A stretch of 64,000 nucleotides of DNA, taken from contig CAYUTO010000002.1 of assembly GCA_964447765.1 (NCBI GenBank), positions 38,955 to 102,954 of the forward strand. The letters are read 5' to 3'. This document shows positions 5,192-56,530 of this stretch, piece after piece. The stretch is from an uncultured Gammaproteobacteria bacterium. Its GTDB lineage: Bacteria > Patescibacteriota > Patescibacteriia > Magasanikbacterales > UBA922. A model generated the notes under the pieces. The model was not told where the DNA came from. It made no database searches and worked only from the letters and a program-made list of their open reading frames with translations. The first letter of the stretch is position 1. Each line of letters starts with the position of its first letter. Made by a program: the position numbers and the translations under genes.

Positions 5192-5566
5192 TTGGGGGGT
5201 ATGGAATACAAAGATTTTTATCAACTTCAAATTTGGAGGGATGGTTATGATCTCTTGATGAACGTGTATACCTGTACAAATGAATTTCCGGTACACGAAC
5301 AATACGCACTTATCGCGCAAGTATGCCGGTCAGCAAATTCAATTATTGCAAATATAGCCGAATCACATGGTCGGTACTCATATGCTGATAAAATCAGGGT
5401 ACTATACATTGCGCGAGGAGAAATCTTTGAAACTCGTAGTCATATATCTGTTGCGTATGGACGTAGATATGTCTCACTTGAAATGTTTACTCAATTAAAT
5501 GCAGGTTACAAGAAATTAATAAAAGACATAAATTCATATATCAAAAGCCTTCAGAGCAAAAAATAA
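5192..5566 (+). CDS. Four-helix bundle protein (23S rRNA intervening-sequence protein family, TIGR02436-like)
   Basis: MEYKDFYQLQIWRDGYDLLMNVYTCTNEFPVHEQYALIAQVCRSANSIIANIAESHGR is the typical family signature. TTG start per the ORF track. Confidence 0.75.
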   Translation: MGGMEYKDFYQLQIWRDGYDLLMNVYTCTNEFPVHEQYALIAQVCRSANSIIANIAESHGRYSYADKIRVLYIARGEIFETRSHISVAYGRRYVSLEMFTQLNAGYKKLIKDINSYIKSLQSKK

Positions 5567-5568
5567 TC

Positions 5569-5593
5569 TTCAATCTTTAATCTTCTATAGTAT
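5569..5593 (+). repeat. Right arm of the inverted repeat bracketing the four-helix-bundle gene. Contains AATCTTCAATCTT.
   Basis: See the left arm at 5158-5185. Same 13-mer as the hairpin at 2193-2242. Confidence 0.55.
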
Positions 5594-5597
5594 ATTT

Positions 5598-6422: not shown

Positions 6423-6483
6423 TTTTGTGGGGTGTCTGAATTTTTGCTATACTTACGCTTGAATATATTTAAGCTCTGATTTC

Positions 6484-7152: not shown

Positions 7153-7154
7153 GT

Positions 7155-28020: not shown

Positions 28021-28116
28021 CCATCTGGGCATTTTTCACACCATTGGTGAAGATGAGTATAGCCTTTACTCGTACACTTGTCAACGATATGCTATACTGT
28101 ATGAAGCAAAATACCT

Positions 28117-32464: not shown

Positions 32465-32530
32465 ATCCGTCTCCTTGGTTGTTTGGGTGACCCCACAGTA
32501 TAGCATATTTGAGTGATTTTGTCAATACAA

Positions 32531-34958: not shown

Positions 34959-36284
34959 TCAACCAAGGAGACGTCCTCGTAATTCTCCTGACATAAAAAT
35001 AGAACCCGTCGCAAGAATACAATCATGTGGTTTCGCGATCCTCTTAGTATACTCGTATGCGTCTTTTGGATCAAGAAAAATTTCTACTTTGCATTTCGGT
35101 AATGTGCGTCGTATATGCGTTCGGATCAAATCCATCGCGGCAACTTTGCGAAACGGGTTAACACTGTTTCGTGTAATCGAAATGCTCGTGGGTTTTAAAC
35201 TAAGTAATTGTTTGAGCATTCCCAAAACATCTTTATCACCTGAAAAGCTAATAATAAGATGGAGATTTTTGATTCCAAAAAGTGGAAGTAATGTCGCTGT
35301 AGTTTCGGTAGTAGAGCGTATCTTGTCTCTATTGTGCGCGCCATCAAGTATCGTGAGAGGTTTTGGCAAAACTACCTCCATTCGAAGTGGTTGTGTAGTG
35401 TCTCGAAGACCTTGTGCAATATGCTTACTATTGATGTGTAATTTTTTTGCAGATTCAATACAGAGAACTGCGTTGTGAATTTGGTGAGTACCGTATGCTC
35501 TAAGTTTGAAAGTGGTATTATCGTACACAAATGAGGTGCCCATTTTTGAAATCGACACATCGGTAACTTGGGGTTTGTTGATGCGAGTATAAGGAACTCG
35601 ATGTTTATACGCTTCTGCCTCAATAATATGTGCAAAACGAGTATTTTTTTCAGACGTTATCGCATGTTTGGTTTTCTTGGTAATAATTCCTGCTTTTTCA
35701 TAGGCAATCTCTGATTTATTATTTCCAATAATTCCCACATGGTCGAGTCCAATATTGGTAATAATGGCAATATCTTTGTGAGGAATAATATTGCTTGAAT
35801 CATATCTTCCGCCACATGCAACTTCCATTACCACATGTGTCACACGGTGACGTGCAAAAAATATGAAGCCGATTGCTTCGGTGAGTTCAAAAAAAGAAAT
35901 CATGTCATATTTCGTAGTTCGGATATATTCATCAAGTTTTGGCTTGAGATATTCCACAATTGAGATAAATTCCTTTTCGCTCATATACGCGTCTCCGATT
36001 TTCCATCTTTCAGTAATACTGCTCGGGTGCGGAGAATAGGTGGAGCCAACTTTGTATCCCGCTGCATGGAGAATGCCATGCATAAATGCGGTAGTCGAGC
36101 CTTTACCACTCGTACCAGTTACGTGTATGTAGTGTTTTATTTTTTTTTCTGGGTTTCCGAGGACATCAAGAAATGCTTGGAGCCGATCTAGATACCATCC
36201 GCATGCTCGTGGATCAGTCATGTATTCTTTTCGTGGAATATTTGATAACGATAGAATCCAACTGTAAGCTTCATTGAATGTCAT
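34959..36284 (-). CDS. Mur-ligase-family enzyme, folylpolyglutamate synthase/dihydrofolate synthase-like
   Basis: HVTGTSGKGSTTAFMHGIL is a P-loop of Mur ligase/FolC type. 441 aa. Confidence 0.6.
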   Translation of the reverse strand: MTFNEAYSWILSLSNIPRKEYMTDPRACGWYLDRLQAFLDVLGNPEKKIKHYIHVTGTSGKGSTTAFMHGILHAAGYKVGSTYSPHPSSITERWKIGDAYMSEKEFISIVEYLKPKLDEYIRTTKYDMISFFELTEAIGFIFFARHRVTHVVMEVACGGRYDSSNIIPHKDIAIITNIGLDHVGIIGNNKSEIAYEKAGIITKKTKHAITSEKNTRFAHIIEAEAYKHRVPYTRINKPQVTDVSISKMGTSFVYDNTTFKLRAYGTHQIHNAVLCIESAKKLHINSKHIAQGLRDTTQPLRMEVVLPKPLTILDGAHNRDKIRSTTETTATLLPLFGIKNLHLIISFSGDKDVLGMLKQLLSLKPTSISITRNSVNPFRKVAAMDLIRTHIRRTLPKCKVEIFLDPKDAYEYTKRIAKPHDCILATGSIFMSGELRGRLLG

Positions 36285-36295
36285 ATTTTTTCTTT

Positions 36296-37390
36296 TTACT
36301 TTTTAATTACGTACATCATATTCCCGATATTTTGCACCCTACCTTTCATTTCAAGTACGGTGAGCATTGCAATTACTGTAGGTGGGGTAAAGGTTGATTT
36401 TCGTGTAATTTCATCAATGTGTAGTGGTTCGAGACTGAGAAGTGCTATGAGTTGCGCTTCATCACTGGTATCGGGGATAGTTTCTTGTACTTTGATGTGT
36501 CCTTCAAATGCGATGAGGTTTAGATTTTCAAGTATGTCCTCGGCATTTCGCACGAGATACGCTCCGTCACGGATTAGTTTGTGAGGGCCAGCTCCGGTAG
36601 GCGAGGTGAGTGCATGAGGTACAGCGTATACATCACGCCCATATTCGAGAGAGCATGTTGCGGTAATGAGGGCGCCTGATTTTTCAGGAGCTTCAATAAC
36701 CAATGTTGCAAGAGAGATCCCAGCTACAATTCGGTTTCGTTTGGGGAAACTATAGGTGGTTGGGAGTGCTCCTGGTGGGTATTCTCCAATAAGAGCACCA
36801 TTTTTGTCAATGATAGCTTCTGCAAGCTGATAATGCGCCCGAGGGTACACTGATTTTCGATCTATGCCCGAGCCAAGTACTCCGATCGTGGTACCTCCTC
36901 CACTAATAGAAGCTTTGTGGGCTACGCCATCAATGCCTAGTGCCAACCCACTGACCACTTCAACTCCATGCTTTACAAGCTCGCCTGCGATTTCTTCAGT
37001 CATTTGTTTTCCATATACAGTCATTTTCCGAGTGCCCACAATTGCCACTCGAGGACGAGAATTATCGAGAATTCCTCGAACAAAGAGTGCGACCGGTGGA
37101 TCAAAGATTTCTTTCAATAGTGGAGGATAAGCAGCGTCTTCGATTGAAATAACCCTCATTGCATCATCCGCAAGAATGCGTTCGTATTCTTCTTTCCTAA
37201 ACGCATCTCTCCACTCAAGAAATTCATGTGCGTCGACACTATCAAATCCTGCTTTGGTGAGTTCTCCGAATTCCGCAGACCAAGCATATTCAAAATCACC
37301 AAACACACGTTTCAATATGCGGTATTTTGAGAGAGTAAATTTTGGATAAAAAACAAACTTCTGTAACCCCTCCATAGGTTGATAGAACAC
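36296..37390 (-). CDS. dprA: DNA processing protein DprA (Smf)
   Basis: RVAIVGTRKMTVYGKQMTEEIAGELVKHGVEVVSGLALGIDGVAHK is a DprA Rossmann signature. Confidence 0.85.
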   Translation of the reverse strand: MFYQPMEGLQKFVFYPKFTLSKYRILKRVFGDFEYAWSAEFGELTKAGFDSVDAHEFLEWRDAFRKEEYERILADDAMRVISIEDAAYPPLLKEIFDPPVALFVRGILDNSRPRVAIVGTRKMTVYGKQMTEEIAGELVKHGVEVVSGLALGIDGVAHKASISGGGTTIGVLGSGIDRKSVYPRAHYQLAEAIIDKNGALIGEYPPGALPTTYSFPKRNRIVAGISLATLVIEAPEKSGALITATCSLEYGRDVYAVPHALTSPTGAGPHKLIRDGAYLVRNAEDILENLNLIAFEGHIKVQETIPDTSDEAQLIALLSLEPLHIDEITRKSTFTPPTVIAMLTVLEMKGRVQNIGNMMYVIKK

Positions 37391-43666: not shown

Positions 43667-45778
43667 TTGTGTATGAGTACACTTCGTCTTACAACTCCGG
43701 TTGCCGAGCTCCATCGCGTGGGAAAAAATCTAGAAAATAAACTAGCCAATCTTCGGATACAAAAAGTACAGGATGTATTGTTTCATTTTCCTTTTCGATA
43801 TGAAGATTATCGTTCAGTTGTTGCAATCGCGAATGTAATGCCAGGAGTTGACCTTACGATTAAAGGTACCATTGAACTTATTGCTAATAAGCGCAGCCCT
43901 CGTAAACGCACGATGATTACTGAAGCAGTGGTTCGAGATGAGACTGATGTGATTCGAGTAATTTGGTTTGGTCAGCCATTTATCGGGAAAATATTGAAAG
44001 TGGGTGATGAAGTGTTTTTATCTGGTTCGATAAAAGAAGATATGTTTGGAGTGCACATGGCAAGTCCAGCGTATGAACGTGTGCGTGAAGACAAGCAGGC
44101 AACGCATACCGCACGCATTGTTCCTATGTATCCACTTACTGCAGGTGTGACACAAAAACAAATGCGATTTCTTGTGGAGCAAGTACTCCCGCTCGCTGAG
44201 CAAATCAAAGAATGGATTCCTGAAAGCATTCTTAAAAATAACGAGCTCATTCCATTGTCTCGTGCAATACAAAAAATTCATTTTCCAGAAAATCATGAAG
44301 AACGAACCCTCGCGGAACAAAGGCTAAAATTTGGAGAATTATTTGTCTTACAACTGCGAGCAGAGTTGATTCGCCAGGCAAATGCGAGACAAATTGCACC
44401 AAATATTGGGTTTAAAGAAAAAGAAATCCGTGAGTTTGTACAGGAACTTCCTTTTGAATTGACGGTGGATCAGAAAAAGTCTGCCTGGGAGATTTTTCAA
44501 GATATTGACCGTGGGACCCCCATGAACCGTCTTCTTCAGGGAGACGTGGGATCGGGAAAAACAATTGTTGCTGGTTTATGTGCGTATTTGAGTTTCCTTA
44601 ATGGGTATCAGACCGTTATTATGGCCCCGACAGAAATTTTGGCAACTCAGCATTTCGAAACATTTGGTAAAGTGTTTGGTGACAAGCTGAATTTTTGTCT
44701 ACTGACTGGTTCAGAAATAAGGAATTGGAAAGATGGTATTGAAGGGGAATCGAAAGCAGCACGGAAGTTGTACTTAAAAAAAGAAATTTTTGAAGGTAGG
44801 GTGAATGTTATTATTGGAACGCATGCACTTCTGACGGAAGATACACAGTTTCATAAATTAGGCCTCGTGGTAATCGACGAGCAACATCGATTTGGGGTAG
44901 AGCAGCGAAAAACAATTCGTGATAAATCGGGAATGGAAGGAATGTATCCACATTTTTTATCCATGACTGCAACGCCAATTCCACGCTCGTACGCACTGAC
45001 CTTGTATGGGGATCTTGATGTGTCGTATATCAAAACAAAACCAGCAGGGAGAAAAGATATTATTACGAGACTAGTCGAGCCAAGTAAAAGGGATCGCGCA
45101 TATGGATTTATCAGAGAACAGGTACACAAAGGGCGACAAGTGTTTGTCGTGTGTCCTTTGATTCAGGAAAAAACCAAAGAAGGTGAAAGTATGGGGGTAG
45201 TATCAGAAAAGAAAACCGTGTTGTCTGAATACGAAAAGTTATCAACAAAAATTTTTCCTGATTTGCGAGTCGACTATCTTCATGGAAAAATGAAATCAAA
45301 AGAAAAAGAAGGAATCATGAAAAAGTTCGCAGAGGGCGTTACTGATATTCTAGTTTCAACTTCTGTAATTGAAGTTGGGGTAAATATTCCAAACGCGTCG
45401 ATCATGATGATTGAAGGTGCTGAGCGATTTGGGTTGGCGCAGCTGCACCAATTCCGTGGAAGGGTGGGGCGAGCCGAACATCAGTCGTATTGTATTTTGT
45501 TTACCGAGATTGAGAGTGTAACATCAAAAGGGCGATTAGAGTACTTCGCTAAAACACTTGATGGATTTGCGCTTGCTGAATACGACCTTGAAACAAGAGG
45601 TCCAGGAGAAGTATATGGTACTGCGCAGAGCGGAATGGAAGAACTCCGTCTTGCGACTATGCGTGATCAAAGTATCATTAAAGCTGCGAGAGAATCAGCG
45701 CGAGGTATGGATTTTGAAAAGTTCCCCGAGCTGAAAGATCGGGTGCAAGAGTGGGAAGCACGGGTGCATATGGAATGA
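43667..45778 (+). CDS. recG: ATP-dependent DNA helicase RecG
   Basis: Wedge/OB N-terminus. Helicase motifs GDVGSGKT and DEQHRFGV. 703 aa. Confidence 0.9.
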   Translation: MCMSTLRLTTPVAELHRVGKNLENKLANLRIQKVQDVLFHFPFRYEDYRSVVAIANVMPGVDLTIKGTIELIANKRSPRKRTMITEAVVRDETDVIRVIWFGQPFIGKILKVGDEVFLSGSIKEDMFGVHMASPAYERVREDKQATHTARIVPMYPLTAGVTQKQMRFLVEQVLPLAEQIKEWIPESILKNNELIPLSRAIQKIHFPENHEERTLAEQRLKFGELFVLQLRAELIRQANARQIAPNIGFKEKEIREFVQELPFELTVDQKKSAWEIFQDIDRGTPMNRLLQGDVGSGKTIVAGLCAYLSFLNGYQTVIMAPTEILATQHFETFGKVFGDKLNFCLLTGSEIRNWKDGIEGESKAARKLYLKKEIFEGRVNVIIGTHALLTEDTQFHKLGLVVIDEQHRFGVEQRKTIRDKSGMEGMYPHFLSMTATPIPRSYALTLYGDLDVSYIKTKPAGRKDIITRLVEPSKRDRAYGFIREQVHKGRQVFVVCPLIQEKTKEGESMGVVSEKKTVLSEYEKLSTKIFPDLRVDYLHGKMKSKEKEGIMKKFAEGVTDILVSTSVIEVGVNIPNASIMMIEGAERFGLAQLHQFRGRVGRAEHQSYCILFTEIESVTSKGRLEYFAKTLDGFALAEYDLETRGPGEVYGTAQSGMEELRLATMRDQSIIKAARESARGMDFEKFPELKDRVQEWEARVHME

Positions 45779-45815: not shown

Positions 45816-45854
45816 CCAGTTTGCATTGACAAACTGGGTTTTTTTGTGTATACT
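45816..45854 (+). promoter_or_regulatory. recG rho-independent terminator whose loop contains the -35 box of a consensus promoter TTGACA-17-TATACT driving the island-D gene
   Basis: ccagtttg-cattga-caaactgg then gttttttt. TTGACA at ~45826 and TATACT at ~45849. Confidence 0.65.
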
Positions 45855-45919
45855 CCGCCAGTCTGTTCCACAGGGGCAGGCACCGTCACGCACGAAAGTG
45901 CATTATCAGGAGTCTCACT

Positions 45920-46405
45920 TTGAAAGAATCGGTTCTCAATCGGATCAACAAGATGTCCTATGAGGAGGGTGCCAACCTCCTCACGAACCTCCGCCTGAAC
46001 GCGATCCCTCCGTACCGTCTCCACACCCACCCCGTCGAGTTCACGATCCACACCTTCGGCGTCGACTGCGAGGCCAGGGTCAAGTCGGACACGATGGATA
46101 CGCGTCGTGCCATGAGTGATCTCGGCATGCCGCGGGTCCAGGAGATCGCCAACACGATCTACTTGCACCCGACGCTCGGGGAGGATGCTCTGAACGCGAT
46201 GCTCGACGGCAAACGTGTCGTGATCAACGTCCAGCGTCACCCGAAGACGGAGACGAAGCCCGCGATGCAGGCGGTTCCGATGGCGCCGGTCGAGGTCATC
46301 GCCTCGGTGCTCGACGACGTGCCGGAGGACAAGAGCAAGAAGAAGGTCGAGAACAAGTCTCGGCGCAAGCAGCAGCCCGCGGTCTCCGCGGAATTGCTCC
46401 ACTAG
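45920..46405 (+). CDS. Hypothetical protein (GC-rich island D, ~65% GC). TTG start with AGGAG SD.
   Basis: ORF track 161 aa. AGGAG sits 7 nt upstream of TTG. Opposite-strand ORF 45794..46492 is Arg-rich, typical of an antisense artefact in GC-rich DNA. Confidence 0.55.
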   Translation: MKESVLNRINKMSYEEGANLLTNLRLNAIPPYRLHTHPVEFTIHTFGVDCEARVKSDTMDTRRAMSDLGMPRVQEIANTIYLHPTLGEDALNAMLDGKRVVINVQRHPKTETKPAMQAVPMAPVEVIASVLDDVPEDKSKKKVENKSRRKQQPAVSAELLH

Positions 46406-46558
46406 GTCAAATGATCTAGTAAGAGAAGCAGGCGGTCGCCCATGGCGACTGTCCTGCGTCTCGAATACAAAATCCACACTCGAATCACGCAATAAGTCTC
46501 ATCTATATGGGAACTATCGCGGGAGGGCGAGTGTGGATTTTTGTTTTGCAGTGTATTA

Positions 46559-46591
46559 TTCCTCTCCTAAGAGGAGAGGTTAGGTGAGGTC
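46559..46591 (+). repeat. Left terminal inverted repeat: palindromic core cctctcctaagaggagagg plus aggtgaggtc
   Basis: Pairs with 47049-47080 (gacctcacct plus the same palindromic core). Confidence 0.6.
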
Positions 46592-46628
46592 ATTCGAAGG
46601 GTATAATTATGAGTGACTATCTTATTGC

Positions 46629-47000
46629 TTAAGTAGTTAACTGAGAAGAAATATTGCAGGCATTTTTTATTTTCTCTATTACACTTTCTCTTTCAAATAA
46701 TACTTTATCATTTTTAAATCGTATTATTTTGAATCCTTTATTTTTTAGAAAATTTTCTCGTCGGCGATCATATTCTTTCTGTTCGTCATGAACCGGTCCA
46801 TCGAGTTCGATTACCAATCTAAATTCATGACAATAAAAATCAACAATAAATGATCCAATACTGTATTGTCTTCTAAATCTTATTCCTATTTTTCCACCAT
46901 ACAATTCTCGCCAGAGTATTTGCTCAGCCTTGGTCGGATTTTTTCGAAGTAATTTTCTCTTATTAATTAAAGAACGTTTGTTTGAATAAACATACGGCAT
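46629..47000 (-). CDS. DUF559 endonuclease-domain protein (Vsr/MutH-like restriction endonuclease fold)
   Basis: LWRELYGGKIGIRFRRQYSIGSFIVDFYCHEFRLVIELDGPVHDEQ...ENFLKNKGFKIIRFKNDKVL matches DUF559. AAGGAGGG SD. Confidence 0.7.
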   Translation of the reverse strand: MPYVYSNKRSLINKRKLLRKNPTKAEQILWRELYGGKIGIRFRRQYSIGSFIVDFYCHEFRLVIELDGPVHDEQKEYDRRRENFLKNKGFKIIRFKNDKVLFERESVIEKIKNACNISSQLTT

Positions 47001-47091: not shown

Positions 47092-48432
47092 TTAAGTCTT
47101 CTTTATCAACTCTTCAATATTTTTAACTTCAATCATATTCACTCCAGGTTGTTCGGTAATTTTTTTTCCGGCAGGAACAATGATACGTTTCATGCCAAGA
47201 TCAACTGATTCTTTGATTCGTTTTTCATTATGTCGCACTGAGCGTACTTCTCCGCCGAGTCCTACTTCACCAAACACTACCGTGTCACGACCGAGAGATT
47301 TATCTTTGTACGAGCTTGCAATTGCGAGGCATACTGCCAGATCAGCTGCTGGTTCTTGAATCTTTATTCCACCCACAATATTCAGGTGAATATCGTATTG
47401 TGCAAGAGTGAGTCCTGCGCGTTTTTCAAGCACCGCAGTGAGCAGATGTAAACGGTTCAGATCAAATCCACTTGCTTTCCGAACGGGGTATCCAAACGTA
47501 GTCTTATGAACTAATGCTTGTACTTCTACGAGAAGTGGGCGAGTACCTTCCATCACACAAGTCACCACATTCCCGGGCATATCCTCTCCGCGTTCGCGAA
47601 GTAGTGATGCCGAAGGATTTGCAACCGAGATAAGACCTACTCCTTCCATTTCAAAAATTCCTACTTCATCAGTCGCACCAAATCTATTTTTTACTGCACG
47701 TAAAATTCGATACGTATGATACTGGTCTCCCTCGAGGTAGAGCACGGTATCGACGAGATGTTCAAGAGTTTTTGGTCCCGCGACACTACCTTCTTTTGTC
47801 ACGTGCCCGATAATCACAATCGGTGTTCCAGATTGCTTTGCTACATCGAGAAGTAGCGTTGCGCATGCGCGTACCTGAGACACTGATCCAGCTTCGCCCT
47901 GTACCTGTTCACTTGAGATTGTCTGGATCGAATCAATAATCGCAAGTTTGGGTTTGTGTGCAGAAATAGTTGCTATAATCGTTTCAACCGAGGTTTCATT
48001 CGAAAGGGAAAGAGTGGGGGAGGTAATATTCAGTCTATCAGCGCGCATCTTTACCTGGCTTACTGATTCTTCTGCAGAAATGTAGAGAGAAGAGGGAATT
48101 GCAGCTGCCAGCTGTAATGCGAGAGTTGATTTACCAATACCAGGTTCTCCACCAAGTAACATAAAACTACCAGGGACAATTCCGCCACCAAGTACACGAT
48201 CAAGTTCTGAAATCGTAGTTTGTGTTCTTTCGGTCGAATGGGAATCAACGCTTGCGAGTGTGTGAATTGAAGCGGGTTGGGAAGTAGACGTGGTGGTATT
48301 GTTTTCTGGAATTTTCTCAGCTGTTTCTATGACCGTACCCCACGAGCCGCATTCGAGGCATCTCCCAATCCATTTTTGGTATTGAGCATCACACTTGGAG
48401 CAGGCGAAAATTGTTTTTGTTTTTGAGGACAT
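47092..48432 (-). CDS. radA: DNA repair protein RadA (Sms)
   Basis: N-terminal C4 zinc finger (CSKCDAQYQKWIGRCLECGSW). RecA-like Walker A (GEPGIGKST). Lon-like C-terminus. Confidence 0.9.
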   Translation of the reverse strand: MSSKTKTIFACSKCDAQYQKWIGRCLECGSWGTVIETAEKIPENNTTTSTSQPASIHTLASVDSHSTERTQTTISELDRVLGGGIVPGSFMLLGGEPGIGKSTLALQLAAAIPSSLYISAEESVSQVKMRADRLNITSPTLSLSNETSVETIIATISAHKPKLAIIDSIQTISSEQVQGEAGSVSQVRACATLLLDVAKQSGTPIVIIGHVTKEGSVAGPKTLEHLVDTVLYLEGDQYHTYRILRAVKNRFGATDEVGIFEMEGVGLISVANPSASLLRERGEDMPGNVVTCVMEGTRPLLVEVQALVHKTTFGYPVRKASGFDLNRLHLLTAVLEKRAGLTLAQYDIHLNIVGGIKIQEPAADLAVCLAIASSYKDKSLGRDTVVFGEVGLGGEVRSVRHNEKRIKESVDLGMKRIIVPAGKKITEQPGVNMIEVKNIEELIKKT

Positions 48433-48599
48433 AAATCTAATAGGTTTACCACTGAAGTAGTATACATATAGGTAGAAGAGAATTACAAGTTATACTAAGA
48501 AAATATAGGTTGAGCCGTCTAATCTATTTTCGGCATTACTTATTGAGTTTTGAATAAGTAAATGTTTATTTTTCTATATTGTTTAAACACTAGATATAA

Positions 48600-50708
48600 T
48601 CATTGCTTACAGGTACAAAGAGGGGTAGGAACTCCTCTATTAGAATCTCCCACAGCTGTTGTGGTGCAAGTATTGGTTCTGCATCCTGATGAAGTATTGT
48701 AATCAAAATGCCACACCTCTCCAGTAAATCGTTTCCATCCAACGACTGAGTAGAACAGTTCGGCAAGTATTTTGTTACCTATTTTCCATTTACCATCTCC
48801 AGTGCTGGTGCACACTTTACTACTACCTGATCCTGTACATGTTTTTGAATTTTCTTGAAGTATGACAGCAGTATCAAAATCAGGGTTTGTAATTGGTTCA
48901 TTATTTTTGTCAAAAAGAATGGTGTCAACTGCGCCCCCGCCCGCATAGTTATGGGCATTAGCGCCAGGAAAAGATAGTTTGGTTCCTAGATCTCCTGTAT
49001 TATTAGGGAATTTAGTGCAGACACGTGTTATAGCGTCTTCCAAAGATCTCCATGAACTATTAATTTGTATGGTAAAAGGTCCAGCTGGATGAGCTTGTGC
49101 TTTTAATCCGACAGCCTTTAAAGGTTCTACAAGCATTATAGGGATGCGTTTGCTCGTTCGAATTCCAGGAGCCCTAAGACCAACTTGTGTTTCGGATATT
49201 GGCATAGATCCTATCACACTTTGTTCTGGCCATGTCTCAGGTGGGTGTTGAGCACACCATTGGCGACAGCCCTCTATGCTGTCACACACATAACCTCTGG
49301 GACCAGTATATGGTCTTGGTAACGTGCTACCACCTGGGGTAGTTGGGGGAGGAGTGGTACCTGGGGTAGTTTGAGCTGATTGATCAGATTGATACGATAC
49401 ATGTGTACCATTATCTGAGTTAACTGTTTCACTAGCTTCAATCTCAGGTTCCTCAAGAAGTTTTTGGGGTATTACTAATATCTTCAAATTCTTCAAATTC
49501 ACCAAATCAGGATTCACGGTATAGAGAATCGTGTATGATCCTGCAGTAATTACAATTGCAATTACTGAGGACACAATTCGATGTTTCGCGCTACTGATAG
49601 TCTCGCTATTTCCAGCTGAAGTAATAATCTGCACTCCAGAGATAATGAGTACCATGACTGCAATAAGTGAGATCAGTCCTACACTATATTTATAAATCGC
49701 AGAAATAAATTCTCCGAGAAATGGAATATTGAGCCAGCTTGCACCAAATTCATCAGTAGTGATGTGAGTCTCTTTGGTAATATTGGTAAAAAATACTCCA
49801 GGTATCCCAATTTTTGTTTCAGGTGTGACGAGCTCTGGGGCCTCCATCGAAATATCAAAGCCGAGGAAAGTGGTCTGAACTAGATTATCTGGAGAGCTAG
49901 GAGAAGTGGGTCCTGCCCATGTACGCATCGTCTGAAGGGAAGTCGGCATCCAGTTGTTTTTTGCAGTATTCTGACACACATGAAGATTGGCTAAATCACC
50001 TGTTCCGTCTGCCTTAACCCAGGTGCCATCTCCATATTGCTCGGTGCAAACTTCCTGTATGGTGTTCGCAGGAGCTACATTGACAATAGTACCTAAATTA
50101 CAGATTTTAAGTTCTTTATCCTGAGCAAACCATGGATCATTTTCAACAGTGCTTGCGATAGTAGTGGAGTCACACACATGGTATCCTCCTCGTTGAGATA
50201 AACATGCATCATGGTCATCGCATGCATAGCCCATAAGAATTTTTTTTTCAACAGGATACTTAACATCATTTGTCGAATTTTTTGGAAGACTACTAAGATA
50301 GTCCGCTTTTTTACAAAAATTCCATTCAGCTCGGGACGAATCAGGATCTTGATCTGAGTCCATACACTTCCAGCCAGAAGCAGTGCCCCCATATCCGCCG
50401 TATAAGGTGTTTTCGCAATGGTCACTTTTTTGCTTATCCTGGTCATCGCATACACAAAAACTATTCTGGCATAGGCCTGTAGTACACTGATCATCATCAC
50501 TACAAGCTTGTCCAATTTTTTTCCCAATACAGATTGAGGATTGGCACAATCCACTATCACAATCACTGTTGACGCTACATGCACCACCTGCGTCTGTTGC
50601 TGTATGTACAGAGATTGCCTGTGTGATTCCAAGTATAATAAAAAACAAACTTGCTAGGATACGTAATGTAATTGCGTGTATTTTCATAACCCAAGTATAC
50701 GCTCCCAA
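48600..50708 (-). CDS. Secreted/membrane Cys-rich protein: signal peptide, EGF/Dickkopf-like CxxC modules, two central TM helices, Pro/Thr linker, C-terminal peptidase M15 (VanY / L-Ala-D-Glu endopeptidase-like) domain
   Basis: CSVNSDCDSGLCQSSICIGKK...CSDDDQCTTGLCQNSFCVCDD. TMs ISAIYKYSVGLISLIAVMVLIISGV and IVSSVIAIVITAGSYTILY. C-terminal SFPGANAHNYAGGGAVD and EVWHFDY resemble the M15 SxHxxGxAxD and EWWHF motifs. Confidence 0.55.
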   Translation of the reverse strand: MGAYTWVMKIHAITLRILASLFFIILGITQAISVHTATDAGGACSVNSDCDSGLCQSSICIGKKIGQACSDDDQCTTGLCQNSFCVCDDQDKQKSDHCENTLYGGYGGTASGWKCMDSDQDPDSSRAEWNFCKKADYLSSLPKNSTNDVKYPVEKKILMGYACDDHDACLSQRGGYHVCDSTTIASTVENDPWFAQDKELKICNLGTIVNVAPANTIQEVCTEQYGDGTWVKADGTGDLANLHVCQNTAKNNWMPTSLQTMRTWAGPTSPSSPDNLVQTTFLGFDISMEAPELVTPETKIGIPGVFFTNITKETHITTDEFGASWLNIPFLGEFISAIYKYSVGLISLIAVMVLIISGVQIITSAGNSETISSAKHRIVSSVIAIVITAGSYTILYTVNPDLVNLKNLKILVIPQKLLEEPEIEASETVNSDNGTHVSYQSDQSAQTTPGTTPPPTTPGGSTLPRPYTGPRGYVCDSIEGCRQWCAQHPPETWPEQSVIGSMPISETQVGLRAPGIRTSKRIPIMLVEPLKAVGLKAQAHPAGPFTIQINSSWRSLEDAITRVCTKFPNNTGDLGTKLSFPGANAHNYAGGGAVDTILFDKNNEPITNPDFDTAVILQENSKTCTGSGSSKVCTSTGDGKWKIGNKILAELFYSVVGWKRFTGEVWHFDYNTSSGCRTNTCTTTAVGDSNRGVPTPLCTCKQ

Positions 50709-51349
50709 TCACTCAATAACTTTGGAGTCTCTATTTGTACATTATTTATAAATAATGTGGGAACAGACTGAAGATTGAGTGTGTTCGCAATATTTTTATT
50801 AAGTTCAATAATCCGATCTGGACGATCTGATTCAAGACATGTATTTAATTTTTCGATATCAAGTTTGATTTCTTGGCTAATTTTGGTAAGCGTGCCTTCT
50901 GAGAGATTGTCGCTGTTGGAGAATGCATAGGCTGCAAACTGATCGAATTGTTTTTGTTCATGAGCGCATACCCCATATCGAAGTGCGGTCAGTGAAGGGT
51001 GGGGAAAATTATTCACCGGGAGACCTTTCCAAACCATCTTTACTTTATCCGGGTGTTTTTGTTGTACCTGGAGAAAGAGATCGTGTTGTGTTCTGCATGC
51101 ACTACAGGAAAAGTCTTCAAATGCGATTACGGTTATGGGTGATTTTTTGCTTCCAATGATGGGGTCTGTCGGGAGGGTAGGAATTTTGAATTCAGAAGCT
51201 ACATTTTCTTCTACTGCTGCAATTTTTGGATTGAGTGGTTGGTAGCGAACAATTTGGATAAAAAGCGCAAGAGCCCCTAGGAGAATAGCTGGTAAAAAGA
51301 CGGCGTAGATTTTTTTGTGTGTGAGTTCGTGGGACATAGTTTTTTGCAA
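50684..51349 (-). CDS. DsbA-like thiol:disulfide oxidoreductase, membrane-anchored
   Basis: Thioredoxin-fold CxxC (FEDFSCSACRTQHDLF). N-terminal TM. Confidence 0.7.
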   Translation of the reverse strand: MQKTMSHELTHKKIYAVFLPAILLGALALFIQIVRYQPLNPKIAAVEENVASEFKIPTLPTDPIIGSKKSPITVIAFEDFSCSACRTQHDLFLQVQQKHPDKVKMVWKGLPVNNFPHPSLTALRYGVCAHEQKQFDQFAAYAFSNSDNLSEGTLTKISQEIKLDIEKLNTCLESDRPDRIIELNKNIANTLNLQSVPTLFINNVQIETPKLLSDWERILGL

Positions 51350-51354
51350 CTCCC

Positions 51355-52605
51355 TTATTTAAGTGGAATGCTAAACAATCCACTTTGATTTTTGTCAGTG
51401 AAGTAGAGTGTACTTCCATCTCCACTGACAAACATAGAGTCTACTACATGCGAGTCGTCAGTCTGGAGTGCTGTTCTAATTCCTGTGACGGTATCAATTC
51501 GATAAAAAGTATCTGCCGTAAAATTGGCAACTTCGGGGGCAAATCCTGCGCCACTTTCAAGGGTCGTTGGTACCCCGCAGTAGACGGTGCGTTCATCTGC
51601 CATCGTACATTTGGATGCCCAAGTGTTTACGCCCAATGGTTTTCGGTTTGCGCCAGCATTTTCTGGGCTTGCGTCCACAATCCATAATTCAGGCTTATAA
51701 TCAGTTCGTGAGCTGTGCACACTGTGTAGTAGTTTATTGCCTTCAGGAGACCATTGAGTTTGCAGTCCGCGTCCTTCGACTTCGATTGATCTAAAATTTT
51801 CATTGTTTTGTCCGACGAGGAGTAATTCTTGTCGCTGTCCACCAATTTCGTCTCCAGTCAAAGAAAGTGCTACTACTTGTCGGTTGGGTGACCAATCAAC
51901 GATTACTTTTGATGCATTATTACCAAGTGCCTCGACAAGGGATACATTATTTCCTGTAGGGTCACTCGTGATAAGCCAACGATTGTCGGGGGATAACCCC
52001 ATGCTTTTTGCAGTGATTTGTGAGCCTTCTTCGGAGAAAGAAAATGATTCCCAGTGTTTGGGGAGTGTTACCTGAGTATTCGAATCAAAATCATAATAAA
52101 TATTTGATCCATCAGGGTATTCAATAATTGTTTCATTGGTCTCGGGTGACCATGTAGCCTGAGTGACATTATAAAACACCGTATCACTCAGTACTCGTAC
52201 ACCCCCATTTCGATCAAGGGTATAAAATTTTCCGTCATTCTCATTGTAAAATCGTGCATTTCCGCTCGGTCCCGGACTAGGACTCCCTATGCTCACGTCT
52301 ACTACACGGGTAATTAATGGTTGGGAATTTGGTCGGTTGATCGTATTCGGCTGGATAATCCCTCCGGTTGTTTGTCCGCCACCCGTCTGACCGCTGCCAG
52401 TCGGTAAGGTACCTCCTCCTGAGGTGATAGGGGGAATATCCCGTTCTCCCGTCTCGGGGAATAGACTGCCGTCAGTTTGTGTTCCGGTCCCAGGAGGAAC
52501 AGTGCTTACAGGAGCTTGTCGAAAAAATACCCAATAAATGGCAAATCCCAAGAGTACACAAATGCCGAGAAAACCGACGGTAAGTAATATTTGCTTTTTT
52601 TCCAT
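51355..52605 (-). CDS. TolB-like beta-propeller (PD40/WD40-like) protein, N-terminally membrane-anchored
   Basis: TM, then G/T/P-rich linker, then repeated WSPETN / WSPNRQ / WSPEGN blades. Confidence 0.6.
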   Translation of the reverse strand: MEKKQILLTVGFLGICVLLGFAIYWVFFRQAPVSTVPPGTGTQTDGSLFPETGERDIPPITSGGGTLPTGSGQTGGGQTTGGIIQPNTINRPNSQPLITRVVDVSIGSPSPGPSGNARFYNENDGKFYTLDRNGGVRVLSDTVFYNVTQATWSPETNETIIEYPDGSNIYYDFDSNTQVTLPKHWESFSFSEEGSQITAKSMGLSPDNRWLITSDPTGNNVSLVEALGNNASKVIVDWSPNRQVVALSLTGDEIGGQRQELLLVGQNNENFRSIEVEGRGLQTQWSPEGNKLLHSVHSSRTDYKPELWIVDASPENAGANRKPLGVNTWASKCTMADERTVYCGVPTTLESGAGFAPEVANFTADTFYRIDTVTGIRTALQTDDSHVVDSMFVSGDGSTLYFTDKNQSGLFSIPLK

Positions 52606-52649
52606 ACCACGTAGGGAATCAGAGAGAAAATAATTTCTAATTATTTATC

Positions 52650-53786
52650 TTAAGTTGCTTGCGGGACATCAAACTTCGGGGTAGGTGCACGAGGTCCACT
52701 TCTTTTTTGTCGCTGGATAGATTGTATCACATTTACAGCTTTTTCTCGATCTTTTTTGGCTTTATCGATTTTTTCATCGATTGTTTTGATTTGCTTTTCG
52801 AGTAGATCTATCAATTCGCTTATTCCGTATTGTATGAATTTCAATAACCAATCTAAACCTTTGAGTATTAACCCGATAATAGCGAGGATGATAGTGAAAT
52901 ATAATATTGCTATCACAATGGCAAGGAGTCCTCGGGCAATCAAAATAAATAGTTTTGAAACTTGTAGAGTGCGCAGTGCGACTTGTAGAGGTAATTTTTT
53001 TAACCGTAAATTTTTGATTTTTTGATCCAGTTTTTGCTTGATACGCATGACACGATTCATCTTTTGTGACGCCTGTTGATCCTGCTTCATGGACATTTCC
53101 TGTCCTTGAGTCTGTTGCAAAACTCTCATTCCCAAATTTCGTTTTTGTTGCACTTCCTGTTTTTTCTTCCCACGCTCTTGTTCAAGTTGTTGCTCTCGGA
53201 CTTGTTCTTCTTGGAGTGCTTGATCTAGGAATGCACTCTGATCTTCTTCGCTTTGATCTTCATTTTCTTCGTCGCCCTCTTTGGTACCTTCTTTGGAAGA
53301 AGGATTTGATTCGGCATCAGCGAGGGGAAATGGATTTTCTTCTGTACCCTCCCCTTGGTCAGGGGTATCGGGGACGGTATCAGGAGTAGAGGGGTCGGTC
53401 TGTTGAGTTTGGTTTTGAGTAGATGAGTTTCGTTGTGTTCGGCGTGCGGAAGGTGATAATTGTGTCTGTGCAGAAGATGGTACATCAAATTTGAGTTTTA
53501 ACTTTACACCAGCTGAACCATCCGATGTTGTTTCAAGACTAGAACTATCATTACCCCCTGATTCGAGGCTTGCTTGGATATGATCAATTTCAAGACCAGT
53601 AGCCTCATCTTCGTTATTAATTGCTAGTTTTGCATCATTTCGTGCGCTATTCTGACTGCGATATATCTGAGATGCTTGGTTCTGCTCCGTAGGTGTGGCG
53701 GACGCAGGTTTACCGGAACCGATGGCAGCAGCAAGAGCGGCTCCGCGAGCAAAACGTCCGACGAAGTTGCCTTTTTTTGATGCCAT
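52650..53786 (-). CDS. Q/E/S-rich intrinsically disordered protein with coiled-coil segments and a C-proximal TM helix
   Basis: QEEQVREQQLEQERGKKKQEVQQKRN... TM LFILIARGLLAIVIAILYFTIILAIIGLIL. Start overlaps the stop of the upstream Clp gene. Confidence 0.5.
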   Translation of the reverse strand: MASKKGNFVGRFARGAALAAAIGSGKPASATPTEQNQASQIYRSQNSARNDAKLAINNEDEATGLEIDHIQASLESGGNDSSSLETTSDGSAGVKLKLKFDVPSSAQTQLSPSARRTQRNSSTQNQTQQTDPSTPDTVPDTPDQGEGTEENPFPLADAESNPSSKEGTKEGDEENEDQSEEDQSAFLDQALQEEQVREQQLEQERGKKKQEVQQKRNLGMRVLQQTQGQEMSMKQDQQASQKMNRVMRIKQKLDQKIKNLRLKKLPLQVALRTLQVSKLFILIARGLLAIVIAILYFTIILAIIGLILKGLDWLLKFIQYGISELIDLLEKQIKTIDEKIDKAKKDREKAVNVIQSIQRQKRSGPRAPTPKFDVPQAT

Positions 53787-53787
53787 A

Positions 53788-56373
53788 CTAACTTAAGAGA
53801 TACTCATCTTTTTTACGAGTGAGTGTATACGCTTTCTTTTTCTTTTTTGAGAGTATGTCGATTACTAGTTGTTCAATAATTCGCTCGAGCTTTCGTTCGA
53901 TGTTTCGTGCACCCAAATCTTTGTCCCGAGTTTCCCGAGCCAGAGCCTCAAGAGCATCAGTATCGGTGGCAATCGTAATCTGCTGACTCTCATTGAGAGA
54001 ATTACTTAGTTTTGCAATATGCTTCAAGATAATATTGCGCACATCTGCTTCGGTGAGCTGATTGAATACACATACGGCATTGATTCTGCTCATGAGTGCT
54101 GAAGAGAAGCCTTCTTTGAGTTTTCCCATGATTGCTTTTTCGAGCGTGTGCCTCGTTTCAACGGTACTCTTGTGCGTATCTCCAAATCCGATTCCCTGAG
54201 ATTTGTATAACTCAGCTCCGATGTTTGAGGTAAGAATGATAATTGAGTGTGTGAGTTTTACTTTTTTTCCATTGGTATCACTGATTTCTCCTTCATCAAG
54301 AATCTGGAGTAATAATTTCATGACATCAGGATGCGCTTTGTCGATTTCATCAAACAACAATACTGAATATGGTCGTAATTTTAATTTTTCGAGGAATGGG
54401 TTACGGTCTTTGTACCCAATATATCCAGCAGGGGAGCCAAGTAGCTTTGCCGTACTATTTCCTTCTGAAAATTCACCCATGTCGAGACGAATAAAAGCTT
54501 TGGCATCATGGTACAGTGCTTCGGCTAGTTGCTTTGCAAGCTCAGTTTTGCCCACTCCAGATGGCCCGGTGAAGAGAAATGAGGCGTAGGGCTTTTTGGT
54601 ATCTCTAATACCCAGTTCGGCCATTTTGAGGGTTTCTACTACTTCTTCCAATACCTCATCTTGTCCCATGATATGAGTTTTCAGTTTTTCTTTGAGTGTT
54701 TTCAACTGTTCCCATTCATTCTGATTGAGCATGGTCCGGTCAATATGCATTTTTTTACTAAGCACATCGCGCACGTGTTCGACCGTAACAGAAGGGAGAG
54801 TGAGTACCTTCTTTTTTGAAGTTTTTTCGAGAGCATTTTTTGCTCGAGCTAATTTTTTTTCAAGTGCTGTTATTGCATCTTTGATTTTTGCCGCATCTTT
54901 CAATCGTTCTTCGGCAATCGCTTGGTTCTTTTTTTCAATATATTCTTCGAGTTTTTTTTCAAGCGTCTCAAATTTTGCAACAGACACGGGTGTTTTTTGT
55001 TTGGTTTTGACCGAGCTTGCTGCTTCATCAATCAGGTCGAGTGCTTTATCAGGCTGGAAATTATCATGGATATAACGGTTGCTGAGGCGCACTGCTTCCT
55101 CAATTGCATCGTCAAGAATTTGTACCTGGTGGTACCCTTCGTAGTGTTTCTTGACACCAGTAAGAATCGTAAGTACTTCATCACGATTTGGTTCATCCAC
55201 ATCAATTTTCTGGAAACGTCGTTCAAGCGCGGGGTCAGAAGAAATATATTTTTTGTATTCATCATACGTGGTTGCACCAATACAGCGGAGAAGACCTCTG
55301 GCAAGGGCGGGTTTCAGAATATTTGCCGCATCCATCGTACCTTGATTGGATCCCGCACCAATAATATTATGGAGCTCGTCGATAAACAGGATGTAATTTG
55401 GGTTTTTCGCGCATTCATCAATAATTGATTTGAGTCGTGCTTCGAATTCTCCGCGATAAATAGTCCCTGCAACGAGGAGGGTAAGGTCGAGAGAGAGAAT
55501 TTTTTTTCGTTTCAAAATATCTGGAATATCTCCTTCGGCAATTCGTTTTGCAAGACCTTCAACAATCGCTGTTTTTCCAACGCCAGGTTCCCCGACGAGA
55601 ATCGGGTTGTTTTTGTTTCTTCGTGAAAGGATGTTGATCATTCGCTCGATCTCATCTTCGCGACCAATCACTGGGTCAATTTTTTCAGTATGCTGGCGAT
55701 GAGTAAGGTTGGTGGTAAATAGGGCGACTGCCGACGTTTGTTTTCGATCACGAGAGAGTGATGCGGGCATGGTATCTGGTTTTGAGTTTTCTGACGGTTG
55801 TTCTTCGTGTTCGTCTTCTTCGGTTTCTTCCTCATGGGCAGATTCGAGTGGAGTACCTTGAATTTCCTCAAATATTTCCATCACTTCTCCCATCTGGGTA
55901 AATTTTTCCGCGTTATGGAATGAAATATCGAGTTGCGCTTTGAGTTCGCCCACATTTACCGAAAGAGTCCCGAATAATTCTTGTATTTCTTTATTTTTGA
56001 GAGATAGTATTCCAAAAAGTAAATGCTCGGTACCAATATATGAATGTCCTTCCTCGTGTGCGCGAAGGAGTGCTTTTTCGAGTGCGCTTCGGGAAGTGGT
56101 ACTGAGATTAGGGACTGGAGTAGAAACTTTGTCTGAGGTGACGGTATGAGCTTCCTCGAAATGTTCCGTCAAATGATCACTAATAAGCTCGGGTGTAATT
56201 GAGAATTTTTTTAAAAGCTCACTACCAATACTTCCGGTTTCTTCGGTAAGTGCATGCAAAAGGTGAGGCAATTCTACCTGTGATTTCTTCAAGCGTGCAG
56301 CAAGAGAAATCGATCGGGCGATCGTATTTTTTAAATGTGTAGAGAAATTATCAAGAAGTTTTTGTGCGTCCAT
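53788..56373 (-). CDS. clpC: Clp/Hsp100 AAA+ chaperone, ClpC/ClpB-type (two AAA+ modules, Clp_N repeats, short middle coiled-coil)
   Basis: Walker A GEPGVGKTAIVEGLA and GPSGVGKTELAK. Clp_N at the N-terminus. ~60-aa M-domain. 861 aa. Confidence 0.8.
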   Translation of the reverse strand: MDAQKLLDNFSTHLKNTIARSISLAARLKKSQVELPHLLHALTEETGSIGSELLKKFSITPELISDHLTEHFEEAHTVTSDKVSTPVPNLSTTSRSALEKALLRAHEEGHSYIGTEHLLFGILSLKNKEIQELFGTLSVNVGELKAQLDISFHNAEKFTQMGEVMEIFEEIQGTPLESAHEEETEEDEHEEQPSENSKPDTMPASLSRDRKQTSAVALFTTNLTHRQHTEKIDPVIGREDEIERMINILSRRNKNNPILVGEPGVGKTAIVEGLAKRIAEGDIPDILKRKKILSLDLTLLVAGTIYRGEFEARLKSIIDECAKNPNYILFIDELHNIIGAGSNQGTMDAANILKPALARGLLRCIGATTYDEYKKYISSDPALERRFQKIDVDEPNRDEVLTILTGVKKHYEGYHQVQILDDAIEEAVRLSNRYIHDNFQPDKALDLIDEAASSVKTKQKTPVSVAKFETLEKKLEEYIEKKNQAIAEERLKDAAKIKDAITALEKKLARAKNALEKTSKKKVLTLPSVTVEHVRDVLSKKMHIDRTMLNQNEWEQLKTLKEKLKTHIMGQDEVLEEVVETLKMAELGIRDTKKPYASFLFTGPSGVGKTELAKQLAEALYHDAKAFIRLDMGEFSEGNSTAKLLGSPAGYIGYKDRNPFLEKLKLRPYSVLLFDEIDKAHPDVMKLLLQILDEGEISDTNGKKVKLTHSIIILTSNIGAELYKSQGIGFGDTHKSTVETRHTLEKAIMGKLKEGFSSALMSRINAVCVFNQLTEADVRNIILKHIAKLSNSLNESQQITIATDTDALEALARETRDKDLGARNIERKLERIIEQLVIDILSKKKKKAYTLTRKKDEYLLS

Positions 56374-56530
56374 AGGGCATTAGTCAGAAAGTCGAAAGTA
56401 AAATACGCAACTTATTGCGTCTAGTATGGTAGGTAGTATATACTGTTTTTACATCAAAATCAATCAGGATAAAGCCTAAAAGGCTAATGCAACTTAAAAA
56501 GCTCTAAATTAACCAGACAACCAGAAAAAT

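Follow-up and report, generated by a model that had tools for sequence, protein, structure and literature searches.

The locus described here lies in a 64-kb stretch of contig CAYUTO010000002.1 (the window) and consists of five tightly packed genes on the minus strand followed by radA (sms). The five encode a Clp-type AAA+ unfoldase (gene 1, clpC), a glutamine- and glutamate-rich membrane protein (gene 2), a beta-propeller protein (gene 3), a DsbA-like oxidoreductase (gene 4, dsbA) and a cysteine-rich protein in which a VirB2/TrbC-like pilin core is joined to a predicted peptidoglycan hydrolase (gene 5). All five open reading frames (ORFs) of the original prediction were found where it had placed them (Table 1). 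Judged by sequence, the DNA belongs to the core chromosome of a member of Candidatus Magasanikbacteria (Patescibacteria/candidate phyla radiation, CPR), the lineage from which all named close homologues derive, and the genes around the cluster are of the housekeeping type (AspRS, ScpAB, S11 DD-carboxypeptidase, TopA, Mur ligase, DprA, Der, LCP, RelA, ParB, RecG, RseP and PheS). An Rfam scan of the window returned tRNAs only.

For comparison, 80 species-representative Magasanikbacteria loci were collected with a gene 3 alignment and 25 metagenome loci with a five-sequence alignment of the gene 5 pilin core; individual loci are referred to by L numbers. Gene content in the contexts of gene 5 homologues, in the 80 loci and in the metagenome loci was determined by phmmer on all ORFs, and presence counts for each gene include only loci whose contig extends far enough. 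Many of the GTDB representative metagenome-assembled genomes carrying the cluster (L012, L015-L018 and others) have the record title ‘uncultured Gammaproteobacteria bacterium’, and ‘Methanosarcinales archaeon’ occurs once. These titles are apparently placeholder or erroneous taxonomy, as the proteins of the former group are 45-97% identical to Magasanikbacteria-named ones.

At the first junction, for which a 1-bp overlap had been proposed, genes 1 and 2 are in fact separated by one nucleotide (TAG t ATG), while the 44-nt gap between genes 2 and 3 is as described. The next two junctions depend on the start codons chosen: with TTG starts, the proposed 5-nt gap between genes 3 and 4 and 25-bp overlap between genes 4 and 5 both hold, whereas the probable ATG start of gene 4 at 51337, preceded by GGGAG, leaves 17 nt, and an ATG at 50687 reduces the overlap to the 4 nt of ATGA. 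The NCBI model of gene 5 (P0001, 695 aa) has the ATG start. A spacer of 167 nt separates gene 5 from radA in the window.

Table 1. Features of the clpC-radA locus, with positions in the 64-kb window.
Feature	Position	Strand	Basis or detail
Gene 1, clpC	53788-56373	(-)	861 aa ORF
Gene 2	52650-53786	(-)	378 aa ORF
Gene 2 hydrophobic hairpin, residues 273-318 (~45 residues)	52833-52970	(-)	hydrophobicity
Gene 3, propeller	51355-52605	(-)	416 aa ORF
Gene 4, dsbA	50684-51349	(-)	221 aa ORF
Gene 5, pilin-M15	48600-50708	(-)	702 aa from TTG; 695 aa from ATG at 50687
Gene 5 signal peptide, MKIHAITLRILASLFFIILGITQAISVHTA	50598-50687	(-)	hydrophobicity and sequence reading
Gene 5 N-ectodomain, 18 Cys, two C-x5-C-x3-G-x-C-x4-C knots	49839-50597	(-)	sequence reading
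Gene 5 pilin core: IPG-x-F-T/S, FLGE(F/Y)I, TM1, short K/H/R loop, TM2, SYTILYTVNP	49434-49838	(-)	PF18895
Gene 5 C-terminal M15/LAS metallopeptidase domain (predicted), 10 Cys	48603-49307	(-)	homologue profile and motifs
Gene 5 predicted catalytic/Zn residues	R547 49047-49049; H579 48951-48953; D588 48924-48926; E657 48717-48719; H660 48708-48710	(-)	motif alignment
Unmatched part of gene 5 N-domain	49877-50247	(-)	no DNA match in L096
Replaced cassette, C-domain and gene 5-radA spacer	48415-49473	(-)	no DNA match in L096
radA (sms), last conserved gene	47092-48432	(-)	TIGR00416 above its cut-off
Sigma-70-like clpC promoter, TTGATT-17-TATACT with extended AGTATATACTAC motif	56434-56463	(-)	exact TTGAY-N18-TATAMTA match
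Hairpin palindrome ACGCAA-TAAG-TTGCGT in clpC 5' leader, then T-rich run	56405-56420	(-)	perfect palindrome between promoter and start codon
Weak promoter-like site before radA	48459-48488	(-)	promoter scan

Gene 5 has three hydrophobic segments (residues 1-30, 327-360 and 370-391), the last two connected by the loop TSAGNSETISSAKHR, and the positive-inside rule applied to this loop suggests a hairpin in the membrane with both termini, and hence both ectodomains, outside. More than 20 extracytoplasmic cysteines had been claimed for the protein; it has 28, all in predicted extracytoplasmic parts, divided between the N-domain (18) and the C-domain (10), an even number in each, with none in the transmembrane (TM) core. 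The N-ectodomain gave only a weak match to an EB module and was assigned to no family. A TrbC/VirB2-like character had been suspected for the central two-TM region, and the isolated core indeed scored 26.8 bits against PF18895 (T4SS_pilin; gathering cut-off 26.6 bits), compared with 22.4 bits within the whole protein. The core also matched NF045849, a family of pilin-like conjugal transfer proteins (E 7e-6), and among 19 related cores scanned, 18 matched PF18895 (best E 1.6e-11) and 2 matched TrbC PF04956. It is highly conserved across loci and under strong purifying selection (ratio of nonsynonymous to synonymous substitution, dN/dS, 0.04).

The C-terminal domain of gene 5 was examined together with its homologues. 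A profile of six homologous C-domains retrieved B. subtilis YodJ/LdcB (4ox3, E 3.4e-7) and VanY, VanXY and VanX (E 1e-3 to 6e-3), three of the six match Pfam VanY (best E 6.5e-10), and R547, H579, D588, E657 and H660 are invariant in all of them, with H579, D588 and H660 aligned as Zn ligands. The domain conforms to the LAS fold, with a spacing between the first histidine and the aspartate of 8 rather than 6 residues. These results agree with the M15 annotation first given to the domain, and we infer a Zn-dependent, LdcB/VanY-like M15 peptidase that would cleave peptidoglycan stem peptides.

The locus of gene 5 is polymorphic and modular, and the window has one of its alleles: on a conserved pilin core, the ectodomains at the two ends are exchanged as cassettes. 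Gene 5 thus belongs to a family of pilin-anchored hydrolases that swap their heads, which is the main feature of the locus and had been missed by the original prediction. Across loci, the C-terminal cargo includes the window-type M15 domain, VanX-like M15, Amidase_2, Peptidase_M15_4, VanY and Peptidase_C39_2 domains, a large cluster with a sub-threshold M23 match (26.3 against a cut-off of 28.7 bits), a weak NlpC/P60 match and two unassigned clusters. The N-terminal cargo comprises the Cys-rich domain of the window, an Exo_endo_phos (EEP) nuclease/phosphatase domain and an esterase-like domain without a Pfam match. N-terminal domains not directed at the wall were noted at L047:13980-16124, L024:12046-14487 and L028:6932-9688 (Exo_endo_phos, 56.9 bits; esterase/SGNH-like; metallophosphatase motifs); the metallophosphatase motifs of L047 (GNHD/GHNH), like an SLT-like motif that follows the M23-type cargo, come from reading the sequence only.

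The replacement is seen most directly in the closest relative, L096 (GCA_018061425.1). Identity to the window proteins is 96.7% for PGM, 97.9% for ClpC, 96.6% for gene 3, 97.3% for RadA and 97.1% for RecG, and falls to 71% for gene 2, 82% for DsbA, 65% for the gene 5 N-domain and 87% for the pilin core; where the window allele has its M15 domain, L096 carries Amidase_2. The DNA flanks align at 88-92%, and blocks of non-alignable DNA lie on either side of the conserved core (Table 1). Values of dN/dS are 0.03-0.05 for PGM, ClpC, gene 3, RadA, RecG and the pilin core, 0.14 for DsbA, 0.26 for residues 1-150 of gene 5 and 0.32 for the fast-evolving gene 2, and synonymous sites are saturated in the swapped blocks. 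Genes 2, 4 and 5 are therefore hotspots of divergence, and the pattern is one of cassette replacement around a conserved scaffold, not merely of fast point mutation. Since orthologous positions hold enzymes for different bonds, and even nucleases or esterases, selection appears to favour a lytic activity displayed on a scaffold rather than the cleavage of a given bond. In this respect the locus is closer to polymorphic interaction proteins than to an autolysin of the housekeeping kind.

Gene 4 matches PF13462 Thioredoxin_4 (88 bits, E 1e-24) and PF01323 DSBA (27.6 bits), both above the cut-off, and has an N-terminal TM anchor (residues 8-32) and a CSAC active site (residues 78-81, nt 51095-51106), in accordance with its original annotation; its sequence identifies it as a membrane-anchored, extracytoplasmic thiol-disulfide oxidoreductase of the DsbA type. 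The early emphasis on its pairing with the Cys-rich protein is reinforced by the comparative data. In 74/74 loci the gene immediately after dsbA encodes a pilin-domain protein, and elsewhere in this lineage another conserved locus shows the order secG (divergent), dsbA (~240 aa), Cys-rich pilin (~490-525 aa) and uvrA, without a Clp gene or a propeller (L010:9245-11502; L092-L095, about 5245-7575). Each genome thus has two pairs of DsbA and pilin, and a DNA-repair gene follows both of them. Gene 5 is probably the substrate of the gene 4 enzyme, which is a divergence hotspot beside it. A monoderm precedent exists in B. subtilis, where BdbD/BdbC oxidise the pilin ComGC (PMC8262900).

The order PGM (divergent), clpC, gene 2, gene 3, dsbA, one or two pilin-domain genes and radA was found in essentially all 80 loci, and also in 8 metagenome loci. 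ClpC was present in 51/51 loci, always as the first gene, DsbA in all 74, a pilin gene in 67/69 and RadA in 43/50; one third of the loci have two pilin-domain genes in tandem. Median gaps in the relatives are 4 nt (gene 3-dsbA), 1.5 nt (dsbA-pilin) and 14.5 nt (pilin-radA). Tight packing and conservation of the cluster among relatives, both expected from the outset, were thus borne out, even in the distant genome L006, where the cluster is kept at 25-52% protein identity although the upstream flank is rearranged. The proposed limit of five genes was too narrow: because the order recurs with gaps of a few nucleotides, the conserved unit runs through radA. On sequence evidence we regard clpC - gene 2 - gene 3 - dsbA - pilin-X - radA, where X stands for the exchangeable cargo, as a core-genome operon conserved across Magasanikbacteria.

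Gene 2 had been described as a Q/E-rich coiled-coil TM protein, an accurate description of a sequence that is rich in Q, E and S, especially in its N-terminal 270 residues, has 0 cysteines and belongs to no family. Its hydrophobic stretch is long enough for a helical hairpin and has charged, coiled-coil-like segments on both sides. A homologue search gave 4 matches, while the 74 related loci examined encode, at the corresponding position, a protein with this hydrophobic hairpin; an iterative hidden Markov model (HMM) recovers it in 49 of the 74.

Gene 3 had no direct Pfam match, and a few of its homologues carry a precomputed PF07676 match. In the AlphaFold model of gene 3 (pLDDT 83.5), a TM helix at the N-terminus leads through a disordered T/G/P-rich linker (residues 34-93) to a 7-bladed beta-propeller; WSP motifs are repeated, and one Cys pair (C333, C343) is invariant. 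The protein retains at least ~50% identity across the lineage, with a dN/dS of 0.04. Of the earlier label ‘TolB-like propeller’, the propeller stands and the identification with TolB was rejected, the protein being seven-bladed and TM-anchored; because the structural matches found by Foldseek are to generic propellers (tricorn, oligogalacturonate lyase, WD40; E about 1e-9), ‘TolB-like’ can serve as a loose description only. Scans of the window ORFs found none of tolQRA or pal near the cluster, in keeping with the view that this is not a canonical Tol-Pal operon, and the organism is a monoderm.

Gene 1 contains the Pfam domains Clp_N, AAA, AAA_lid_9, AAA_2 and ClpB_D2-small, with Walker A motifs at residues 261 and 603. 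Its best solved relatives are the ClpC proteins of S. aureus and B. subtilis, each in a single contiguous alignment (6em9, E 5e-177; the other, E 1.5e-167), whereas ClpB aligns in pieces only, and residues 727-731 (nt 54181-54195) form a ClpP-docking-type GIGFG loop. No NCBIfam equivalog cut-off was reached. With two AAA+ modules, a Clp_N domain, a short middle domain and an (I/V)GF loop, the protein is, by its sequence features, a cytoplasmic double-ring unfoldase of the ClpC type, which narrows the initial assignment to ClpC or ClpB.

Both ClpC and RadA evolve at housekeeping rates, and their genes are co-regulated neighbours in Bacillus as well (PMC10633939). The two represent an old Firmicute-type pairing with an envelope cassette set between the partners, so that ClpC may be there because the gene order was inherited and not because it belongs to a machine; nothing links ClpC functionally to the envelope genes with which it is probably co-transcribed, as RadA is in most relatives. 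Regulation of the CtsR type was rejected, as matches to the CtsR operator occurred at chance level in the window and none lay upstream of clpC. In most relatives an additional soluble helical protein of ~105-125 aa, with no family match, is encoded between clpC and gene 2 (L028:3429-3785, L030:8363-8728, L040:8453-8818 and ~40 other loci); the window and its closest relatives lack it. This protein could be a ClpC adaptor, and together with the tight clpC-gene 2 junction it leaves room for speculation about a relation between ClpC and gene 2.

Consensus terminator and promoter scans across the cluster gave matches at chance level and therefore neither split nor prove an operon. The pattern TTGAY-N18-TATAMTA occurs 9 times in the window, against 1.8 expected, with 0 matches inside the cluster; one match lies upstream of clpC, where the promoter TTGATTTT...AGTATATACTAC is conserved in related loci. 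The sites include 2758-2787, 4462-4491, 28055-28084, 32496-32525, 35045-35074, 45826-45855 and 56434-56463; they lie mostly ahead of genes, often take the form TTGATTTT...TATACTA/C and resemble a housekeeping promoter consensus of the organism. The stem of the palindrome in the clpC leader is kept in the related locus L001 with another loop (ACGCAA-CCAG-TTGCGT), and the palindrome could be an operator or attenuator. The transcription unit most likely starts at clpC and includes radA in most relatives, and radA may have its own promoter in the window.

Several neighbouring features were also recorded. Genes for recombination or transformation lie within 16 kb of the operon (topA 32609-34900, dprA 36296-37390, recG 43667-45778, radA 47092-48432). 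The region 3' of radA (45856-47000) is variable: a gene for a DUF559 endonuclease-like protein (46629-47000) is common to the window and L096, a GIY-YIG gene is found there in L001, and 45856-46420 has no DNA match in L096 or L001 and contains overlapping ORFs on both strands without family. On the plus strand, an ORF of 3019 aa (7155-16214) has no Pfam match at E<=1e-4, nor does a 222-aa ORF upstream of it (6484-7152); the former is probably a giant surface protein of a kind common in CPR genomes.

Our favoured interpretation is that gene 5 would be exported by Sec and held in the membrane by its VirB2/TrbC-like hairpin with both large ectodomains outside, where the anchored DsbA would form their roughly 14 disulfides and probably that of the propeller Cys pair too. 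The C-terminal M15 domain, dependent on Zn, would cut the stem peptides of peptidoglycan. The propeller and gene 2, the latter with its membrane hairpin and disordered cytoplasmic region, would be envelope partners of this conserved core. The pilin core would serve as an invariant scaffold, its heads being swapped by recombination anchored in the core and in radA. The enzyme would be displayed on the outside of the cell, perhaps incorporated into a VirB2-like pilus as a minor subunit, and would breach walls as VirB1-type hydrolases do in Gram-positive type IV secretion systems (T4SSs). We hold the architectural part of this scheme to be probable. For the scheme as a whole, in which a surface- or pilus-displayed enzyme breaches a wall and the wall of a partner or host is a likelier target than the cell's own, the chances appear about even; the original suggestion that the host wall is attacked is possible on this account.

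A wall-breaching role at the surface or on a pilus is favoured because the cargo families match those of VirB1-like hydrolases, because most Patescibacteria genomes with VirB2-like pilins, which are widespread and essential in the phylum, lack VirB1 (PMC12102498, PMC10633639), and because Southlakia needs its pilins for epibiotic growth (PMC10633639, PMC12857230). Several observations weigh against it. The link to a T4SS or pilus is only indirect, as VirB4 was found neither in the window nor, up to 10 kb from the cluster, in any of the 80 Magasanikbacteria loci. The C-domain of gene 5 taken alone has no Pfam or PDB match, so that its M15 assignment depends on the indirect evidence of profile and invariant residues, and the AlphaFold model of the protein has low confidence (pLDDT 59). 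No DsbB, BdbC or VKOR partner for the DsbA was present among the ~45 window ORFs scanned. A two-TM anchor with ectodomains of ~230-260 aa reaches only the cell's own wall unless the protein is extruded in a filament, and a housekeeping operon with one or two copies is an unusual setting for effectors. Gene order is weak evidence of joint function by itself, since PGM, RadA and RecG are also syntenic and the conservation partly reflects general synteny; as a whole explanation, general synteny is weakened by the survival of the cluster in L006 despite its rearranged upstream flank.

The anchor and the operon setting speak for the main rival reading, in which gene 5 would act on the cell's own wall, as an anchored autolysin or stem-peptide trimmer (LdcB/VanY-like) in growth or division, or in opening the wall for a pilus or T4SS, with DsbA as its folding factor and genes 2 and 3 as envelope scaffolds. 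The nearest solved relatives of the C-domain are housekeeping LD/DD-carboxypeptidases, a two-TM anchor would hold the enzyme at its own membrane, the locus is a core operon with one or two copies throughout the lineage, and the organism has wall genes of its own (S11 DD-carboxypeptidase, Mur ligase, LCP). The Gram-positive VirB1-like enzymes PrgK and TraG are likewise membrane-anchored and belong to the same families, M23, SLT and CHAP (PMC12102498). A housekeeping autolysin would, however, not be expected to switch between carboxypeptidase, amidase, M23 endopeptidase and cysteine peptidase in genomes that are ~97% identical, to carry nuclease or esterase domains at its other end, or to have its ectodomains replaced while its anchor is under strong purifying selection. 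We consider action on the own wall possible but less probable than the display of a wall-breaching enzyme.

The genes next to the pilin loci raise the question of DNA uptake or transfer, in which a pilin-domain protein would belong to a T4SS- or competence-like apparatus and adjoin radA for coordinated uptake and recombination. Pilin genes lie directly beside radA at the window locus and beside uvrA and ruvC elsewhere; in L104 (3027-8878) three tandem pilin-domain genes come directly after yebC, a methyltransferase-like gene and ruvC. Furthermore, dprA, recG and radA all fall in the same 64 kb, and an EEP nuclease domain is fused to some alleles. A search for VirB4, TraC-like proteins and ComF beside the cluster was positive only in L006, L088 (ComF) and L118. 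In L006, comF, VirB4-like, TraC-like and PrgI genes follow radA-recG, with the T4SS genes 6-10 kb from the cluster, and in L118 the same pilin core follows VirB4/TraC-like genes. T4SS loci of the ABY1 class commonly include comF, recG and radA, for which coordination has been proposed (PMC12102498), and L006 fits this pattern. Adjacency to recombination and repair genes in three cases (radA, uvrA, ruvC) may nevertheless be a coincidence that arises easily in small genomes, radA is 167 nt away in the window and may have its own promoter, and nothing in gene 5 is DNA-binding. In Southlakia, moreover, the T4SS lacks a relaxase and a coupling protein and comEC is non-essential (PMC10633639, PMC12857230). 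A role in DNA uptake is accordingly judged unlikely.

Least likely of all is the dedicated machine of the original prediction, in which ClpC would power or control folding and export of the wall enzyme with gene 2 as membrane adaptor: the invariable first position of clpC, the single nucleotide between its stop and the gene 2 start, a disordered and presumably cytoplasmic region beside the gene 2 hairpin that could tether ClpC or be its substrate, and the possible adaptor encoded in most relatives speak for it, but a cytoplasmic ClpP-docking unfoldase is hard to reconcile with a substrate that carries a Sec signal peptide and would be oxidised outside, Bacillus has clpC and radA as co-regulated neighbours with none of these envelope genes (PMC10633939), the dN/dS of ClpC (0.03) is that of a housekeeping protein, unlike the values for genes 2, 4 and 5, and the second dsbA-pilin locus has no Clp gene. 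Evidence would be needed before the ClpC of this cluster could be assigned to an export machine.

Patescibacteria, which account for much of bacterial diversity, live on other cells, and few of their components besides VirB2-like pilins have proved essential for epibiotic growth (in Southlakia). The locus, a lineage-wide and easily recognised operon, is a testable candidate for the missing wall-cutting function by which the envelope of a partner would be breached, and it offers a natural catalogue of predicted disulfide-stabilised lytic domains; used as a marker, it could allow alleles to be compared with host identity across metagenomes. One may go further and suppose that a VirB1-type function has been fused onto VirB2-like pilins, that a filament or anchor with disulfide-stabilised lytic heads opens the host and feeds on it by contact, and that the dsbA-pilin locus is a recombination hotspot that matches heads to the wall chemistry of the host, with DsbA co-diverging. 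This extension is speculative and on balance improbable; if true, fused pilin-hydrolases would explain why most VirB2-bearing Patescibacteria lack VirB1, and a new class of modular T4SS-type pilins would be defined.

The cluster shares individual features with several known systems. As in the Tol-Pal system, a propeller with PD40/WSP-type repeats is encoded in an envelope gene cluster, but TolB is six-bladed with an N-terminal alpha/beta domain, whereas gene 3 is seven-bladed and has a TM anchor and a disordered linker. The Bacillus operon reported by Kruger et al. is said to have the order ctsR-mcsA-mcsB-clpC-radA-disA; compared with B. subtilis, a ClpC-type unfoldase and radA are likewise co-directional here, but ctsR, mcsA, mcsB and the CtsR operator are missing, a divergent PGM gene lies upstream, four envelope genes stand between clpC and radA, and disA is absent. 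The role suggested for gene 4 corresponds to that of BdbD/BdbC, in which a monoderm DsbA-like enzyme is needed for pilin disulfides (PMC8262900); in Bacillus the oxidised protein is a type IV (pseudo)pilin that has a single disulfide, in contrast to a VirB2-like fusion with about 14. The C-domain of gene 5 has the W/Y-R-S, H-x(6-8)-D and E-x-x-H motifs of LdcB/VanY (MEROPS M15B) and differs from these enzymes in its 8-residue H-D spacing, its 10 cysteines and its position C-terminal to a pilin hairpin.

The closest parallels are the VirB2/TrbC-like pilins of Patescibacteria and the VirB1-like hydrolases. With the former, gene 5 and its relatives share the two-helix hairpin with a short basic loop, a PF18895 match that is at threshold in the window and clear in relatives, and the tandem duplication and high variability of described pilin arrays. 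The described pilins are small and arrayed near virB4, however, whereas here ectodomains of ~250 aa are present at both ends, one of them a predicted peptidoglycan hydrolase, and gene 5 follows a dedicated dsbA in a clpC...radA operon away from virB4. VirB1-like hydrolases such as PrgK of pCF10, TraG of pIP501 and CwlT of ICEBs1 are also membrane-anchored, multi-domain proteins, and M23 and NlpC/P60-type domains are among the alleles seen here; they differ in having a single N-terminal TM anchor, in being encoded in the T4SS operon and in lacking a pilin fusion, and the window allele is of the M15 type. While VirB2-like pilins, M15 peptidases, DsbA and the clpC-radA pairing are each already known, three features appear to be undescribed in the literature searched: exchangeable wall hydrolases fused to a VirB2-like hairpin, the constant association of this fusion with a dedicated DsbA and a conserved propeller, and the nesting of the whole in a lineage-wide clpC...radA operon.

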